From Escherichia phage vB_EcoM_VR7, in sequence record NC_014792.1: DNA of 64,000 nt; one strand, 5' to 3'. The position numbers were made by a program, and so were the translations under genes. Below are positions 37,505-47,201 of the stretch, in pieces. Positions within the stretch are counted from its first letter, which is position 1, and each line of letters opens with the position of its first letter. The notes under the pieces are model-generated. The model did no database searches, was not told the origin of the DNA, and saw only the letters and a program-made list of their open reading frames with translations.

Positions 37505-39064
37505 ATGAAAAAGAATGCATTAGTTCAAAAATGGTCCGCTCTGCTGGAAAACGAAGCTCTTCCTGAAATCGTTGGTGCTTCTAAACAAGCTATCATCGCT
37601 AAAATCTTTGAAAACCAGGAACAAGATATCCTGACCGCTCCAGAATACCGTGACGAAAAAATCTCCGAAGCATTTGGTTCTTTCCTGACCGAAGCTGAAA
37701 TCGGTGGTGACCATGGTTATGATGCTACCAATATCGCCGCTGGCCAGACCTCTGGTGCAGTAACTCAGATTGGGCCGGCAGTTATGGGTATGGTTCGTCG
37801 TGCTATCCCGCATCTGATTGCGTTTGATATTTGTGGCGTACAGCCTCTGAACAACCCGACTGGCCAGGTATTTGCCCTGCGTGCAGTTTACGGTAAAGAC
37901 CCTGTAGCTGCTGGTGCTAAAGAAGCTTTCCACCCGATGTATGCTCCGAACGCTATGTTCTCCGGTCAGGGTGCTGCTGAAGCTTTCGAACCTCTGGCTG
38001 CAAGCAAAGTTCTTACCGTTGGTAAAATTTATTCTCACTTCTTCGAAGCAACCGGTTCCGCACACTACCAGGCCGTTGAAGCTGTAACCGTTGATGCCGC
38101 CGCTACTGATGCTGCTAAACTTGACGCTGAAGTTACCAAACTGCTCGAAGCTGGTAAACTGGCAGAAATCGCTGAAGGTATGGCTACCTCTATCGCCGAA
38201 CTGCAGGAAGGTTTCAACGGTTCTCAGGATAACCCGTGGAACGAAATGGGCTTCCGCATCGATAAACAAGTTATCGAAGCTAAATCCCGTCAGCTGAAAG
38301 CAAGCTACTCTATCGAACTGGCACAGGACCTGCGCGCTGTTCACGGTATGGACGCTGATGCCGAATTGAGTGGTATTCTGGCTACTGAAATTATGCTGGA
38401 AATCAACCGCGAAGTTATCGATTGGATTAACTACTCCGCACAGGTTGGTAAATCTGGTATGACCAACACCGTTGGCGCTAAAGCTGGTGTGTTCGACTTC
38501 CAGGACCCGATTGATATCCGTGGTGCTCGTTGGGCTGGTGAAAGCTTCAAAGCTTTACTGTTCCAGATTGATAAAGAAGCCGCTGAAATCGCTCGTCAGA
38601 CCGGTCGTGGTGCAGGTAACTTCATCATCGCTTCCCGTAACGTAGTTAACGTACTGGCTGCAGTTGATACCTCTGTATCTTATGCTGCTCAGGGTCTGGG
38701 TAAAGGTTTCAACGTTGACACCACTAAAGCCGTGTTCGCTGGTGTTCTGGGTGGCAAATACCGTGTCTACATCGACCAGTATGCTCGCGCAGATTACTTC
38801 ACCATCGGTTACAAAGGCGCTAACGAAATGGATGCTGGTATCTACTACGCACCATATGTTGCACTGACCCCGCTGCGTGGCTCTGACCCGAAAAACTTCC
38901 AGCCAGTTATGGGCTTCAAAACCCGTTACGGTATCGGTATTAACCCGTTCGCTGACCCGGCAGCTCAGGCTCCGACCAAGCGTATTCAAAACGGCATGCC
39001 GGACATCGTTAACAGCCTCGGCTTGAACGGTTACTTCCGTCGCGTATATGTTAAAGGAATTTAA
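37505..39064 (+). CDS. 23: gp23 major capsid protein
   Basis: 519 aa; synteny. Confidence 0.95.
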   Translation: MKKNALVQKWSALLENEALPEIVGASKQAIIAKIFENQEQDILTAPEYRDEKISEAFGSFLTEAEIGGDHGYDATNIAAGQTSGAVTQIGPAVMGMVRRAIPHLIAFDICGVQPLNNPTGQVFALRAVYGKDPVAAGAKEAFHPMYAPNAMFSGQGAAEAFEPLAASKVLTVGKIYSHFFEATGSAHYQAVEAVTVDAAATDAAKLDAEVTKLLEAGKLAEIAEGMATSIAELQEGFNGSQDNPWNEMGFRIDKQVIEAKSRQLKASYSIELAQDLRAVHGMDADAELSGILATEIMLEINREVIDWINYSAQVGKSGMTNTVGAKAGVFDFQDPIDIRGARWAGESFKALLFQIDKEAAEIARQTGRGAGNFIIASRNVVNVLAAVDTSVSYAAQGLGKGFNVDTTKAVFAGVLGGKYRVYIDQYARADYFTIGYKGANEMDAGIYYAPYVALTPLRGSDPKNFQPVMGFKTRYGIGINPFADPAAQAPTKRIQNGMPDIVNSLGLNGYFRRVYVKGI

Positions 39065-39087
39065 TCTTAGATTAAGTTAAATAAAAA

Positions 39088-39110
39088 GGGACCCTTGAGG
39101 TCCCTTTCTT
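39088..39110. terminator. Bidirectional rho-independent terminator between gene 23 and a convergent small ORF
   Basis: GGGACC-cttga-GGTCCC with T-runs on both strands. Confidence 0.7.
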
Positions 39111-39114
39111 GTTT

Positions 39115-39396
39115 TCATACCATACCATTTAAATGAACTTCTACCCGGCGCTTGATGAGGTCTCTGAAATTAACACTGTTCTCTTGAAGTTTCAACCAGT
39201 TACCTGATTTGTCTTTGGTGTGTGTAGAATAATTACCATTCCACCAAAAATCAGTATCATATGCTAAGTTTTCATATTTTTTAACTAGTTTGTTCAGAGC
39301 ATTACCATTAACACCATTTGGGTATTTGTTGACCAATGCAACAACTTCAATTTCCAGATTTTTAAAGGTATTCCGAAGGAAAGATACTTTGTTCAT
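39115..39396 (-). CDS. Hypothetical small protein (93 aa) on the opposite strand between genes 23 and 24
   Basis: ORF track 39115..39408; start placed at the second ATG (39396) with GGAG RBS; own early-type promoter cassette upstream. Confidence 0.45.
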   Translation of the reverse strand: MNKVSFLRNTFKNLEIEVVALVNKYPNGVNGNALNKLVKKYENLAYDTDFWWNGNYSTHTKDKSGNWLKLQENSVNFRDLIKRRVEVHLNGMV

Positions 39397-39432
39397 TTTA
39401 GACTCCATTGTTTGGTAACTCAGTATGAAATC

Positions 39433-39468: not shown

Positions 39469-39476
39469 TATAAATA
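39469..39476 (+). promoter_or_regulatory. T4 late promoter TATAAATA (gene 24)
   Basis: Exact motif 26 nt upstream of the gp24 ATG. Confidence 0.65.
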
Positions 39477-39501
39477 AAGTATATCACAAAAGGAAAGCGC
39501 A

Positions 39502-40782
39502 ATGGCAAAGATTAACGAACTGCTGCGCGAGTCAACTACTACATCCAGCAACTCATTAGGCCGCCCGAATCTTGTTGCTTTGACCCGCGCTACAACTAAA
39601 TTGATTTACCGCGATATCATCGCTGAACAACGTACTAACCAGCCTGTTGCTGCGCTGTACGGTGTTAAATATATTACTCCTGATAATGAATTCAGTTTCC
39701 AGACTGGTGCTACTTATGGTGGTGAAGTCGGTTCTAAAGACCGTACAACTATTCCAGAATTAGCCACAGCTACTCAGCCTGTTGCTAAAGGCGAATATGT
39801 AAAATATCAAAATATCGTTTACAAAGCTCTGGTGGATAATCCATTTGCAACGACTACAGAAACAGTATTATCTGATGTTCTACAGGAAGGTCTTATTGCA
39901 TCGACTATTCGTTTAGTTCCTGATGCAGCGCATACCGAGAAATTTGAAGCCGGTGATGTTGAAATTAGCAACGCCGTGTTCCAGGTTAATAAATGGAATG
40001 CTCCTGTTAAATCCCGTAAATTGAAAACTGCACTGACTGTTGAACTTGCTCAGGATATGGAAGCAAACGGTTTTAATGCTCCTGCTTTCCTGGAAGACCT
40101 GCTTGCAACTACCATGGCAGACGAAATTAACAAAGATGTTCTGCAGTCTCTGATTACCGTTTCCAAGCGTTATAAAGTCGCTGGCATTTCTGATAAAGGT
40201 TTCATCGATTTGACATATGATTCAGCTCCAGAAGGCGCACGTAAACTGTACGAACTGGTTTGCGAAATGAACTCTGAAATTCAGAAAACTACATCTTACT
40301 CTGGTACATTCGTTGTTGCCTCAAGTCGTGTGGCCGCGATGCTCGCCGGTTCCGGCTGGTTGAAACATAAACCTGAAGATGAACAATGGCTCCCGGAAAC
40401 CGCGTACGGCTATTTGATTAATGGTCTTCCTGTATTCTGTGATGTTAACAGTCCATTGGATTATGTAACCGTTGGCGTTAAAGAAAATTACGGTGGAAAC
40501 GAAGTCGTAGGCTCAATCTTCTATGCTCCTTATACCGAAGGCCTGGACTTAGATGATGAAGAACACGTAGGTGCGTTTAAGGTCATTGTGGACCCAGACA
40601 GCTTGCAGCCATCTATCTCCCTGATGGTTCGTTATGCACTTTCAGCCAACCCTTATACCGTTGCTAAAGACGACAAAGAAGCTCGTATTATCGATGCAAC
40701 TAATATGGATTTAATGGCCGGCCAGAGCAACATGTCTTATCTGCTCGGTGTTAAACTTCCACCAATCATTTATGAGGCGTAA
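39502..40782 (+). CDS. 24: gp24 capsid vertex protein
   Basis: 426 aa; MAKINELLRESTTT...GRPNLVALTRATTKLIY matches remembered T4 gp24. Confidence 0.95.
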   Translation: MAKINELLRESTTTSSNSLGRPNLVALTRATTKLIYRDIIAEQRTNQPVAALYGVKYITPDNEFSFQTGATYGGEVGSKDRTTIPELATATQPVAKGEYVKYQNIVYKALVDNPFATTTETVLSDVLQEGLIASTIRLVPDAAHTEKFEAGDVEISNAVFQVNKWNAPVKSRKLKTALTVELAQDMEANGFNAPAFLEDLLATTMADEINKDVLQSLITVSKRYKVAGISDKGFIDLTYDSAPEGARKLYELVCEMNSEIQKTTSYSGTFVVASSRVAAMLAGSGWLKHKPEDEQWLPETAYGYLINGLPVFCDVNSPLDYVTVGVKENYGGNEVVGSIFYAPYTEGLDLDDEEHVGAFKVIVDPDSLQPSISLMVRYALSANPYTVAKDDKEARIIDATNMDLMAGQSNMSYLLGVKLPPIIYEA

Positions 40783-42066
40783 ATGCAAAAGATTAACGCA
40801 CTAATTCACGAATCAACATTAACGGCGGCCAACCAGGTCGCCCGTCCTAATTTGCTTTCTTATACTCGGGCTACGAATAAACGAATTTTTAAAGCTCTTG
40901 TGGCCGAACAGAAAACTACTCAGCCAGTCGCAGCGCTGTATGGCGTTCGTGTTCTGAACCCAGATGATAAAATGACTTATCTTGGTGGAGCAACATTTGC
41001 AGGCCAGATTGGTATGTTCGAGCGTAAGAATATTCCAGAATTTACGAACAAAGACGAAGCTTATGCAGTCGGCGACATGTTCCAGTTTGAAAGCATTGTA
41101 TTCAAAGCTTTGGAAGCTTCTCCTTTTGCCGGGACCCTCGAAACTGATTTGGGTGAAGTTATTTCTGAAGCCATTGCGGCTGGCCATATAAGAATGATGT
41201 CAGATGCGGCTTTCACTGATAAATTTGAACAAGGACATCCTGAAATTGCTGAAGCCGGTTTCCGTATCGATAAATGGCAGACTGAAGTTAAATCTAGAAA
41301 ACTGAAAACCTCTTTAACTGTTGAGCTTGCGCAGGACCTGGAAGCAAATGGTTTCGATGCAACAGACTTCATTGATAATATCCTCGGTATTCAAATGGCA
41401 GAGGAAATTAATAAGGACGTACTGCAATCTTTAATTACCGTAAGTTCACGTTTTAAAGTCCAGGGTGTTTCCGAAAAAGGTGTACTTAATCTTACTGATG
41501 CCGCTTATGATAATGCTCAGGACCGTGCTCGAACTCTGTATTATTATATGTGCGAAATGAATTCCGCAGTTCAACGTCAGACTTCGTTCGCTGGTACATA
41601 TGCAGTCGCTTCTTCCCGTTGTGCAGCTATTTTAGCCGCTTCTGGCTGGGTTGAGAAAAAGGAAGACCAAGATGAATTGGCCTATGGTGTTCTGAAGAAC
41701 GGTTTGCCACTTTATGCAGATATGAATAGCCCGTGCGATTATGTTATTGTTGGTGTAAATGCTGATATGGGTGAAGGTCAGACGGTCGCATCTTTGTATT
41801 ATGCGCCTTATACGGAAGGTCTTAGTGAAGTTGATGATGAAGGTGACACCTCGGTTGGGGAATTCAAGGTTATTGTTGACCCTGAAAGTTTACAGCCTAC
41901 AGTTGCACTGTTAGCTCGTTATGCACTGACTGCGAACCCTTATACCGTTGCTAAAGACGATAAAGAAGCTCGCATTATTGATGGAGCTGATATGGATAAG
42001 ATGGCTAACCAAAGCCAATTGAGTTCTTATCTTGGTGTTAAACTTCCACCACTGGAAAAAGAATAA
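40783..42066 (+). CDS. gp24 paralog (second capsid vertex-like protein, tandem duplicate)
   Basis: 427 aa; collinear with the preceding gp24 but divergent (MQKINALIHESTLT..., shared QSLITVS and YALSANPYTVAKDDKEARIIDG blocks). Confidence 0.85.
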   Translation: MQKINALIHESTLTAANQVARPNLLSYTRATNKRIFKALVAEQKTTQPVAALYGVRVLNPDDKMTYLGGATFAGQIGMFERKNIPEFTNKDEAYAVGDMFQFESIVFKALEASPFAGTLETDLGEVISEAIAAGHIRMMSDAAFTDKFEQGHPEIAEAGFRIDKWQTEVKSRKLKTSLTVELAQDLEANGFDATDFIDNILGIQMAEEINKDVLQSLITVSSRFKVQGVSEKGVLNLTDAAYDNAQDRARTLYYYMCEMNSAVQRQTSFAGTYAVASSRCAAILAASGWVEKKEDQDELAYGVLKNGLPLYADMNSPCDYVIVGVNADMGEGQTVASLYYAPYTEGLSEVDDEGDTSVGEFKVIVDPESLQPTVALLARYALTANPYTVAKDDKEARIIDGADMDKMANQSQLSSYLGVKLPPLEKE

Positions 42067-42086
42067 GGGCCTTGCGGCCCTTTTTC
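42066..42086 (+). terminator. Rho-independent terminator after the gp24 paralog
   Basis: AGGGCC-ttgc-GGCCCT followed by TTTTCTT. Confidence 0.65.
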
Positions 42087-43091: not shown

Positions 43092-43182
43092 AATTAATTA
43101 ACCTTATAAATATCATTATAAATTATACCCTCTATACTTTCTTTCTCTGAAAGGAATTAATCGTATCGGAAGGTCTAGAACC

Positions 43183-43815: not shown

Positions 43816-45099
<1,284 letters not shown>

Positions 45100-45226: not shown

Positions 45227-46045
45227 ATGGCTATTACATTAAGTCCATCTTCAATAGACGTAGAATACGGTGACTCTTATACAGTCACTGCTAATATTCC
45301 AGATATTAGCCCTGGTTCATCTATTGTGTATAACTGGACTAAGAATAAAAAATTTATTAGTTCCGGAACTAATGTATTCACTGAAATAGCATCATCGGTA
45401 GAAACATTCAGTATTGCGTGCCGAATTGAAATTATATCACCGGATAAAAACACTGAATATATTTTATCGGATTCTTGCTTGGTTAATGTTAGTAAAAACA
45501 CAAAAGCGGACGGTATAAATTCTCAGCTAGTTTATTCACCAGATGTTCATAAAATAGGTGACCAAGTTATTCTTTCTGTAGAATCCCATCATGTAGACCC
45601 TGGCTATATTAAAGGAGTTATTTGGAAAGATCCATCGGGTAATGTCGTGTCAATTGGTAAAGAATATACGCATAAGATTAAGACGACAGAAGATGTTGTA
45701 GATGTAAAAATAGATTTGGCTTCTGAAAATTATGCCTATTACAATAAAACACTTCAAATTGTTCTTAAAGCTGTTGAAGAAGATAATTCGGAGTGTAGTG
45801 TAAGATATATTCATCCTTTAGACCACAGGGATTCAGGATACATCTGGATGGGTTGGTGGGTTATGGACGAAATTGAAAGGGCGACGGTAGAAGGATTAAA
45901 TTGGAAAGCGCCGGACGGTACTGACCTGAAGTATAAGTGTGACTTGAAAACTCTTTCTATAATGCTTGACTTATATAATAATGTTGAAGTACAAGAATCA
46001 AGGAATGGTTATATTCTAAACAGGGCAGATTTACTTCCAAAATAA
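45227..46045 (+). CDS. Hoc-like paralog: Ig-like domain plus Hoc-type C-terminal capsid-binding domain
   Basis: 272 aa; C-terminus YIHPLDHRDSGYIWMGWWVMDEI...VEVQESRNGYILNRADL closely parallels the Hoc C-terminus encoded convergently at 46071-47174. Confidence 0.7.
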   Translation: MAITLSPSSIDVEYGDSYTVTANIPDISPGSSIVYNWTKNKKFISSGTNVFTEIASSVETFSIACRIEIISPDKNTEYILSDSCLVNVSKNTKADGINSQLVYSPDVHKIGDQVILSVESHHVDPGYIKGVIWKDPSGNVVSIGKEYTHKIKTTEDVVDVKIDLASENYAYYNKTLQIVLKAVEEDNSECSVRYIHPLDHRDSGYIWMGWWVMDEIERATVEGLNWKAPDGTDLKYKCDLKTLSIMLDLYNNVEVQESRNGYILNRADLLPK

Positions 46046-46070: not shown

Positions 46071-47174
46071 TTAATAGACGTAATCGTATATAATACCAGC
46101 TTCCAATGCCGAACGGTGGACGATACGACCGTTACGAGATTCCTGTACATCAACTTCCGGGTAATCACTAAGCATTTTGGCTAATACCGCCAGATGACAA
46201 TAATATGGTGTATCCTCTTTAGTGGCTTTTTTCCAATCTGTACTTTCAGATGTTAATTTCTGAATAGCGTCCATAACCCACCAGCCACACCAAATATACG
46301 CAGTATTACGGACAGGAAGTGGATGTACATAAATTAAAGGGCATTCTTCTGGAATAACAGGCTCTGCTTCTTCCACCGTAACAGACTTATTACCTGATTT
46401 AACTGAATTTGTAAAGCCTGTTTGCGATGCGGTAACTTCACAAGTATATGACTTCAAGCCTTCAGTGGATTCCGTTATTGCTCTTGTTGCTTCTGTTGAG
46501 TTGTCGTCCCATTTATATGCAAGAGTAGCACCAGGGATAGCAGGAGACACAGAAGCTGTCAAATTGAATGGAACATCAACCGTCGCAGTAGACGGGCCTG
46601 AAATCTCAACAGTGAACTCAGGAAATGTATTGTTTTCGACCGTAACAACTACTGCCTCAGGATTAATAACTTGATTGTCATAATCTGCAGCAGAAACGGT
46701 AATTTGACAAGTTAAAGAAACTGGTCCTGCGACAGTAGCAGTACGAGTAATATCTTTAGTAATTTCACCGGTAGACCACAAATATGCTATTGTAGCTCCA
46801 CCAGGTTCACCTGTTACGTCGGCCGAAGCGTTATATTCCTCGCCAACTTTAACGGTTGGAGTGGAAGTTGTTAATGTTGCAGTTGCAGACATAGTCTTGT
46901 TATTAACTGTAATAGTTGTTTGAGCCTCTGCCGTTTCAGGCTCTCCTTCTTCCGGCGTTGTGGTGGCAACAACTTTAATTACTTTTGAACCTGCTGGGCC
47001 AGCTGCAATATAATCCATAGTAGCAATAACAGAAGCTTGTGGAACATCATCAACGGTCCATACAAAAGATTCGGTACCAGCGACAGCGGCTCCAGCTCCA
47101 GTGGCAGTAAAATTAGTTGTTGCACCTATAACCGCTGTAGGTGTTAAAGGGGCAATTGATACAGTATAAGCCAT
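46071..47174 (-). CDS. hoc: Hoc (highly immunogenic outer capsid protein; Ig-like domains plus capsid-binding domain)
   Basis: ORF track 46071..47186 trimmed to the ATG at 47174 (GGAG RBS); collinear with remembered T4 Hoc, including KVVATTTPEEGEPETAEA and C-terminal YVHPLP...YIWCGWWVMD...YPEVDVQESRNG. Confidence 0.9.
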   Translation of the reverse strand: MAYTVSIAPLTPTAVIGATTNFTATGAGAAVAGTESFVWTVDDVPQASVIATMDYIAAGPAGSKVIKVVATTTPEEGEPETAEAQTTITVNNKTMSATATLTTSTPTVKVGEEYNASADVTGEPGGATIAYLWSTGEITKDITRTATVAGPVSLTCQITVSAADYDNQVINPEAVVVTVENNTFPEFTVEISGPSTATVDVPFNLTASVSPAIPGATLAYKWDDNSTEATRAITESTEGLKSYTCEVTASQTGFTNSVKSGNKSVTVEEAEPVIPEECPLIYVHPLPVRNTAYIWCGWWVMDAIQKLTSESTDWKKATKEDTPYYCHLAVLAKMLSDYPEVDVQESRNGRIVHRSALEAGIIYDYVY

Positions 47175-47201
47175 AAAAATCTCCAAAAGGCCATAGTGGC
47201 C

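Follow-up and report, generated by a model that had tools for sequence, protein, structure and literature searches.

Two adjacent vertex protein genes downstream of gene 23

In a stretch of 64,000 nucleotides from Escherichia phage vB_EcoM_VR7 (NC_014792.1; hereafter the window), two genes coding for capsid vertex proteins of the gp24 type lie next to each other on the + strand. The first, gene 24a (39502..40782), codes for a protein of 426 amino acids and is read here as the ortholog of T4 gene 24, while the second, gene 24b (40783..42066), codes for a protein of 427 amino acids and appears to be an ancient paralog that is absent from T4. The TAA of 24a is followed directly by the ATG of 24b, with zero spacer. 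An earlier sequence-only reading of the window had described two adjacent, collinear and homologous open reading frames (ORFs) of these lengths, and its coordinates were exact: a full-length BLASTP alignment of the two proteins shows 56% identity and 75% positives (E = 4e-176), which is far beyond chance. That reading was also right in placing the first copy close to T4 gp24 (70.8% identity) and in describing the second one as diverged (55.7%). Each of the two proteins is only 28–29% identical to gp23 of the window, with about 250–280 residues aligned. The conserved block QSLITVS, listed earlier, is found in both proteins; a second block, given as 'VAASSR', was slightly mistranscribed and reads VVASSRVAAMLAGSGW and AVASSRCAAILAASGW in the 24a/24b pair, and the last conserved block is YALSANPYTVAKDDKEARIID in 24a and YALTANPYTVAKDDKEARIID in 24b.

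Gene 23 (37505..39064, + strand; PF07068, E = 1.6e-122), coding for the major capsid protein of 519 amino acids and the older paralog of both vertex genes, is located upstream of the pair, and its product is 99.6% identical to gp23 of Escherichia phage vB_EcoM_VR25. The pair thus occupies the late-gene position directly 3' of gene 23, in the gene order 20-67-68-21-22-23-(orf97)-24a-24b-rnlB, and the order of the head genes is the same as in T4, VR25, and JS98. The ORF of 97 amino acids between genes 23 and 24 (39115-39408, − strand) belongs to PHROG 6003 and has no Pfam match; in T4, the homing endonuclease gene segD sits at this place.

A single late transcription unit

A pattern scan of both strands detected a terminator-like hairpin 3' of gene 23 (39085..39107; −15.9 kcal/mol, z = −2.9), which is predicted to set the transcript of gene 23 apart from the 24a-24b unit. 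The T4-type late promoter motif TATAAATA, identified by direct reading of the sequence at 39469..39476 on the + strand, is the sole copy on that strand between 37358 and 43104, and hence the sole one 5' of the pair; the same motif is present 5' of 24a, at equal distance, in all 15–16 distinct tandem loci compared. The Shine-Dalgarno region of 24a, AAGGAAAG (39490..39497, + strand), has its counterpart in AAGGAAA or GAGGAAA in the other tandem loci. For 24b, the Shine-Dalgarno sequence GAGG (40774..40777, + strand) is located within the last codons of 24a, five bases 5' of the ATG, the arrangement at the junction being ..GAGGCG TAA ATG.. in the window. In all tandem loci compared, GAGG (GAG in Marfavirus-type loci) is found at the equivalent place, and the stop and start codons abut or overlap by 1–4 nucleotides. 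Translational coupling of 24a and 24b is probable with this arrangement. Neither a terminator (pattern scan) nor a stable RNA structure (RNA folding) was detected at the 24a/24b junction. Downstream of 24b, a bidirectional terminator hairpin (42065..42082; −15.6 kcal/mol, z = −4.5) closes both the 24a-24b unit and the convergent gene rnlB, and a GC-rich hairpin is present 3' of 24b in all compared tandem loci.

Considering that this layout of promoter, ribosome-binding site, junction, and hairpin recurs in 15–16 distinct tandem loci, we conclude that 24a and 24b constitute one late operon, that is, one late transcription unit from which both proteins would be expressed. A scan for sigma-70 promoters in the same DNA gave matches no more frequent than in shuffled sequence, which is irrelevant to a late gene. 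A third TATAAATA motif on the + strand (43105-43112) lies between rnlB and the 24.2-like genes, the latter all on the − strand; an ORF for a collagen-like protein begins about 700 nucleotides 3' of the motif, and no + strand start codon lies nearby.

Fold and intactness of both proteins

Both proteins match, over their full length, the profile of the Gp23 family, whose HK97-like fold has an I-domain inserted in it (PF07068, E = 7e-99 for 24a and 2e-98 for 24b), are assigned to PHROG 138, and are placed within the gp24 tree. Compared with the structures in the PDB, the protein 24b matches gp24 (1YUE/7VS5) with E = 8e-149 and gp23 with E = 1e-11, and its AlphaFold model (predicted local distance difference test score, 74.6) gave template modelling scores of 0.78–0.83 to T4 gp24 chains versus 0.57–0.61 to gp23 chains (Foldseek). 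By sequence and by modelled structure, 24b is thus closer to gp24 than to gp23, and both proteins are predicted from these matches to have a complete gp24 fold. Furthermore, 24b keeps all of the 75 alignment columns that are invariant among 47 gp24s spanning both paralog clades. At the N-terminus, every 24a carries L-R-E|S and every 24b carries I-x-E|S (residues 8–11 of 24b), corresponding to the (L/I)-x-E| motif of the prohead protease gp21. In T4, this protease cuts 10 residues off gp24 at its N-terminal (L/I)-x-E| motif (PMC9546572).

The ratio of nonsynonymous to synonymous substitution rates (dN/dS; Nei-Gojobori, unsaturated comparisons only) was 0.033–0.078 for 24a and 0.013–0.079 for 24b, showing that both genes are under strong purifying selection. 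Degeneration of the second copy in related phages, which the sequence-only reading had named as evidence against its own proposal, was not encountered: at every related locus examined (>20 distinct loci) the reading frame of 24b is intact and under strong purifying selection. From their sequences, 24a and 24b both look functional.

Occurrence and previous annotation of the pair

The tandem pair is already known and is not a discovery in itself, as the same genes are found in GenBank at 98–100% protein identity and have been mentioned in print. A region of 4.2 kb around the pair has 91% DNA identity to that of VR25 (Gaprivervirus), and 98.3% if the pair alone is considered. In phages VR5, VR20, VR25, and VR26 the pair is annotated in GenBank as 'capsid vertex protein I' and 'II'; the 24a protein of the window is 99.1% identical to 'capsid vertex protein I' of VR25, and 24b has 100% amino-acid identity to 'capsid vertex protein II' of VR26. 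The pair is annotated as '24a' and '24b' in JS98 (EF469154), as two 'head vertex proteins' in Salmonella phage S16 (gp108/gp109) and in Bp7, and as two 'capsid vertex proteins' in Klebsiella phage PWKp16, Enterobacter phage CIP9, and Erwinia phage Cronus. The genome announcement of Salmonella phage Melville/S16 mentions the tandem duplication in one sentence. A literature search covering JS98, VR7, S16, Dhakavirus, Gaprivervirus, Gelderlandvirus, and Marfavirus did not turn up any study of the second protein by proteomics, genetics, or structural methods. To our knowledge, the placement of each vertex protein in pair-bearing phages has never been asked.

The number of copies was estimated by tblastn over a phage collection, comparing the number of records with the number of places matched. 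The 24b query matched 1416 records at 1533 places and the homolog from Erwinia phage FBB1 matched 1088 records at 1204 places, a difference indicating about 116–117 phage records with two copies. Arrays of the type gp23-24a-24b were observed in Gaprivervirus, Dhakavirus, Gelderlandvirus, Marfavirus, Kanagawavirus CIP9, and Kosakonia phage 305, as well as in Roskildevirus Cronus, Erwinia phage FBB1, and metagenomic contigs; the Erwinia phages Cronus and IT22 have two copies each. At least seven lineages at the level of the genus have inherited the two genes together. Among 5.8 billion proteins searched, 24b-like ones were detected at identities as low as 65%, and the four more divergent ones (65–69%) whose contig was inspected are each encoded by the second gene of a gp23-24a-24b array.

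An ancient split between 24a and 24b

The relationships between the two paralogs and the single-copy gp24s were studied using distance-based trees, of which a first neighbour-joining tree comprised 51 gp24s and an enlarged one 57 sequences, after addition of the FBB1/Cronus-type pairs and with four distance corrections, including p-distance, Poisson, and gamma distances. In the tree of 51 gp24s, all 24a fall in one clade with the gp24s of T4, Karamvirus, Moonvirus, and PEi20 (bootstrap 100), and all 24b form a separate clade (bootstrap 100) outside the 24a/T4 clade, the branching order being congruent within both. In the tree of 57 sequences, the 24b clade is again monophyletic (100%), and the Erwinia-type 24a is sister (100%) to a clade of 84–87% support with T4, a Mosigvirus, Karamvirus, Moonvirus, PEi20, and the 24a of Marfa, Kanagawa-CIP9, Gelderland, Dhaka, and Gapriver phages. 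The grouping of 24a with T4, Moon, Karam, and PEi20 without 24b had 100% bootstrap and was stable under the four distance corrections, while a grouping of 24a and 24b that excludes the single-copy gp24s, as a recent in-situ duplication would give, had 0%. Of nine sites that are derived in the 24a + T4 group, six show the ancestral state in 24b and two the derived one. T4 gp24 is of the 24a type over its whole length.

As the single-copy gp24s of T4 and other phages group with 24a to the exclusion of 24b, the split would predate the T4 lineage, and we read these trees to mean that 24a and T4 gene 24 are orthologs and the pair is ancient, with a split older than the radiation containing T4. The tandem duplication of gene 24 described in the sequence-only reading is therefore real in that two gp24-type vertex genes stand in tandem, but 24b is not a diverged local copy of 24a, since T4 gp24 groups with 24a (bootstrap 100). 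Because two deep pair-bearing lineages bracket the single-copy phages, T4-type, Moon-type, and Karam-type phages seem to have lost 24b, and PEi20 probably did so too.

From the split to the tips, the two copies have diverged to approximately the same extent, with 0.35 substitutions per site for 24b and 0.34 for 24a. These substitutions are distributed differently along the branches, as the stem is about three times longer for 24b (0.173) than for 24a (0.053), while since the deepest split among the pair-bearing phages 24b accumulated only about 0.18 substitutions per site versus about 0.29 for 24a, and thus evolved more slowly. In the first tree, the long 24b stem might have been an artefact of accelerated evolution; the key groupings were stable with added pairs and varied corrections. 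The placement of the 24b clade relative to the gp24s of Jiaodavirus and Tegunavirus varies with the distance correction. A gp23 tree, built as a proxy for the species tree, is too conserved, with most bootstrap values <60, and was not relied on.

A recent identity between the two copies was not observed either. Their nucleotide identity is 62%, with a longest exact run of 26 nucleotides, which speaks against recent gene conversion, and 121 of the 238 identical residues use the same codon in 24a and 24b. Gene conversion was rejected also for the C-terminal block, where the DNA identity reaches 79–81% and the longest exact run is nevertheless only 26 nucleotides. The gp24 of Jiaodavirus JD18, with 64% identity to 24a and 63% to 24b and with DNA matching both halves of the query, was considered as a chimera formed by a deletion between 24a and 24b; it has the ancestral state at all sites of fixed difference, with no switch from the N- to the C-terminus, and this candidate was discarded.

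A lateral origin would be another way to obtain such a pair: 24b would have been acquired from a distant T4-like phage and inserted beside gene 24, and the cassette would then have spread by homologous recombination, with both proteins having the same function. This agrees with the dependence of the 24b placement relative to Jiaodavirus and Tegunavirus on the distance correction, with the gp23 tree, which mixes pair-bearing and single-copy genera at weak support, and with the occurrence of two copy numbers in one ICTV genus (Kanagawavirus, with two copies in CIP9 and one in PEi20). It also agrees with the mosaicism among close relatives. Compared with VR26, 24b of the window has 21 nucleotide differences, 20 of them at third codon positions, and no amino-acid difference, while 24a has 97 nucleotide and 20 amino-acid differences from VR26 and 25 and four, respectively, from VR25, which suggests that Gapriverviruses have recombined with a boundary at the 24a/24b junction or close to it. 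On the other hand, the search of 5.8 billion proteins gave no single-copy donor lineage nearer to 24b than about 63% identity, the four inspected 24b-like proteins at 65–69% identity all occur in pairs, the trees of 24a and 24b agree in their deep split and in the branching within the main group, and the equal distances from the split to the tips are those predicted by a duplication at that node. We thus consider a lateral origin rather unlikely, although it is the alternative that fares best.

Divergence of the paralogs and proposed roles

In ten matched genomes, 41 positions are fixed within each paralog and different between them. In the numbering of T4, these fixed differences include nine of the 38 sites in residues 22–59, three of the 22 in residues 60–81, and 11 of the 70 in residues 231–300; L27Y, L34R, Y57V, T68G, K289E, H290K, and L415Y are among them. 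Moreover, 16 changes specific to 24b affect sites that are invariant in all other gp24s compared, and 10 of these lie in residues 27–72. Residues 231–300 are unusually conserved in 24b, with a mean pairwise identity of 0.94 versus 0.82 in 24a, the segments 161–230 and 360–427 are the most alike between the paralogs (0.71–0.72 identity), and the surface-exposed I-domain is the most variable (0.60 and 0.68 within the clades and 0.36 between them). In T4, residues 26–29 of gp24* form a parallel beta contact with an I-domain linker of the adjacent subunit in the same pentamer, and residues 60–81 belong to I-domain linker 1 (PMC9546572). The 'bypass-24' substitutions, which let gp23 form pentamers, are located at the intracapsomer interface of the A-domain (PMC9546572). 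The gp23 residues affected align near residues 279–287 of gp24.

The prolate head has 11 non-portal vertices, that is, one apical and five plus five shoulder vertices. We propose, with moderate confidence, that 24a and 24b are two functional vertex proteins of a T4-like, Gaprivervirus-type phage, made from one late unit, each forming its own homopentamers in different subsets of these vertices. In this scheme, both proteins would be incorporated into the prohead shell and cleaved there; both would fit the same gp23 lattice, having diverged at the contacts between subunits; each paralog would form homopentamers that dock in that lattice; and the homopentamers of 24a and of 24b would be found in different subsets of the 11 non-portal vertices. 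Separate homopentamers are suggested by the clustering of the fixed differences in segments that hold intra-pentamer contacts in T4 or align with the gp23 residues deciding on pentamer formation, and by the geometry of a five-membered ring, which cannot hold a regular pattern of two subunits. The sequence-only reading had suggested that the second copy may form alternative or mixed vertices; nothing in our data contradicts this, and the fixed differences would be compatible with separate pentamers.

Several points weigh against this proposal. The argument from the interfaces compares regions of the sequence and relies on how T4 has been described in print. In T4, all 11 vertices are occupied by the single gp24, without significant conformational differences among its 55 copies (PMC9546572), so that classes of vertices do not need different proteins. 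The codon adaptation of the two genes (0.63 vs 0.59) does not separate them and thus gives no hint on their stoichiometry. Also, neither direct evidence for synthesis, cleavage, or virion incorporation of 24b nor virion proteomics or cryo-electron microscopy of pair-bearing phages appeared in the literature searched, the JS98 genome and VR7 papers being outside that search. A further extension, that the ancestor of the Tevenvirinae already had two penton proteins at different classes of vertices, for example the apical one versus the ten shoulder ones, that phages like VR7 have retained this state, and that the T4 head is a secondary simplification, is put forward as a tentative possibility.

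The two proteins could instead be interchangeable, co-assembling at random or as heteropentamers at the 11 vertices, so that dosage, robustness, or a diversity of antigens and surfaces, and not roles tied to particular vertices, would account for the retention of both. Co-transcription and the probable coupling would bring both proteins to the same place at the same time, the I-domain is the most divergent part within and between the paralogs, which fits a diversification of the surface, and T4 exemplifies one protein able to serve every vertex. However, redundancy predicts neither purifying selection on both genes, across lineages whose 24b diverges by as much as 35%, nor changes fixed by paralog in segments of intracapsomer contact, and a five-fold penton is incompatible with a regular arrangement of mixed subunits. 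We regard this explanation as unlikely.

A departure of 24b from the vertex role, for instance to assist in assembly or to serve as a decoy for host defences that sense the vertex protein, is less probable still. It would fit the 24b stem, whose length relative to that of 24a could reflect an early change in function, and the vertex protein is needed for triggering the type IV Thoeris defence, from which phage T6 escapes via the gp24 substitution A380V (PMC13243611), indicating a selective pressure driven by defence on this protein. Yet 24b keeps the full length of gp24, the 75 residues invariant in the family, the protease motif, and a gp24-type fold; both copies retain the alanine at the site aligned with the T6 escape substitution; and neither a decoy nor a chaperone would need segments 161–230 and 360–427 to stay at 71–72% identity to 24a. 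Finally, the view that 24b is a decaying or unexpressed duplicate, for which we found no support other than the lack of a promoter of its own, is effectively refuted by the frame that is intact in >20 distinct loci, the dN/dS of 0.01–0.08, the 21 synonymous and 0 nonsynonymous differences from VR26, and the conserved ribosome-binding site and stop-start junction.

The T4 head, for which one vertex protein is usually given, is the reference model of prolate capsid assembly. Among the close relatives of T4, a sizeable branch keeps two vertex proteins under strong selection, and the phylogeny suggests that the single vertex gene of T4 is the survivor of an ancient pair. If 24a and 24b do occupy different vertices, as we favour, these phages would offer a natural system to study the specification of five-fold positions that are not equivalent in an elongated shell, and T4 would be recast as a reduced form. 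Several pair-bearing phages have been isolated as candidates for phage therapy or biocontrol. Capsid engineering or display on such phages would need to consider both proteins, and the part that the vertex protein plays in triggering bacterial defence, at least in the case of type IV Thoeris, is likewise of practical consequence.

Neighbouring genes

Further downstream, the collagen-like ORF (43816-45099, + strand) codes for 427 amino acids, largely made of G-X-Y repeats. In VR25, VR26, and VR5 the homologs carry the annotation of collagen triple-helix repeat proteins; their differing lengths (1581 nucleotides in VR25, 1302 in VR5) suggest that they vary in repeat number. Two convergent Hoc-like ORFs follow (45227-46045, + strand, and 46071-47186, − strand), sharing the C-terminal motif YIHPL..GYIWMGWWVMD and annotated in VR25 as 'similar to Hoc' and 'hoc'. 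With these, another pair of paralogous capsid proteins is encoded just 3 kb from the vertex genes. This duplication is not linked to that of the vertex genes, since JS98 and S16 carry the vertex pair but a single hoc. In the Erwinia FBB1/Cronus-type and metagenomic loci, additional genes are found on the same strand just 3' of 24b, the first coding for a protein of 332–352 amino acids (annotated as 'tail fiber protein' in Cronus and with a faint collagen match in an FBB1-type contig), and the second for a 'putative structural protein' of about 165 amino acids, which has 279 amino acids in an FBB1-type contig (L043). These genes are absent from the window and from one of the FBB1/Cronus-type and metagenomic loci (L046).

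Comparison with known systems

The closest systems are the annotated tandem pairs described above, which have the same orthologs, order, junction, and flanks as the window and show no essential difference from it. The gp24 of T4, with structures available as PDB 1YUE, 5VF3, 7VRT, and 7VS5, shares with the proteins of the window the family, fold, length, late promoter, and N-terminal protease motif, and T4 gene 24 shares their position 3' of gene 23 and convergent with rnlB. The difference is that T4 has a single gene 24, only about 30 nucleotides from rnlB, whereas the window has an extra, anciently diverged paralog. Small changes at the intracapsomer interface, as in the bypass mutations, decide which oligomer a subunit forms (PMC9546572, PMC10580926). 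The duplication that gave rise to gp23 and gp24 is a comparable case, as these are likewise capsid-shell paralogs of one fold that split the positions of a lattice between them. However, gp23 and gp24 are only about 21–29% identical and form hexamers and pentamers, respectively, while 24a and 24b are 56% identical and both of the penton type.

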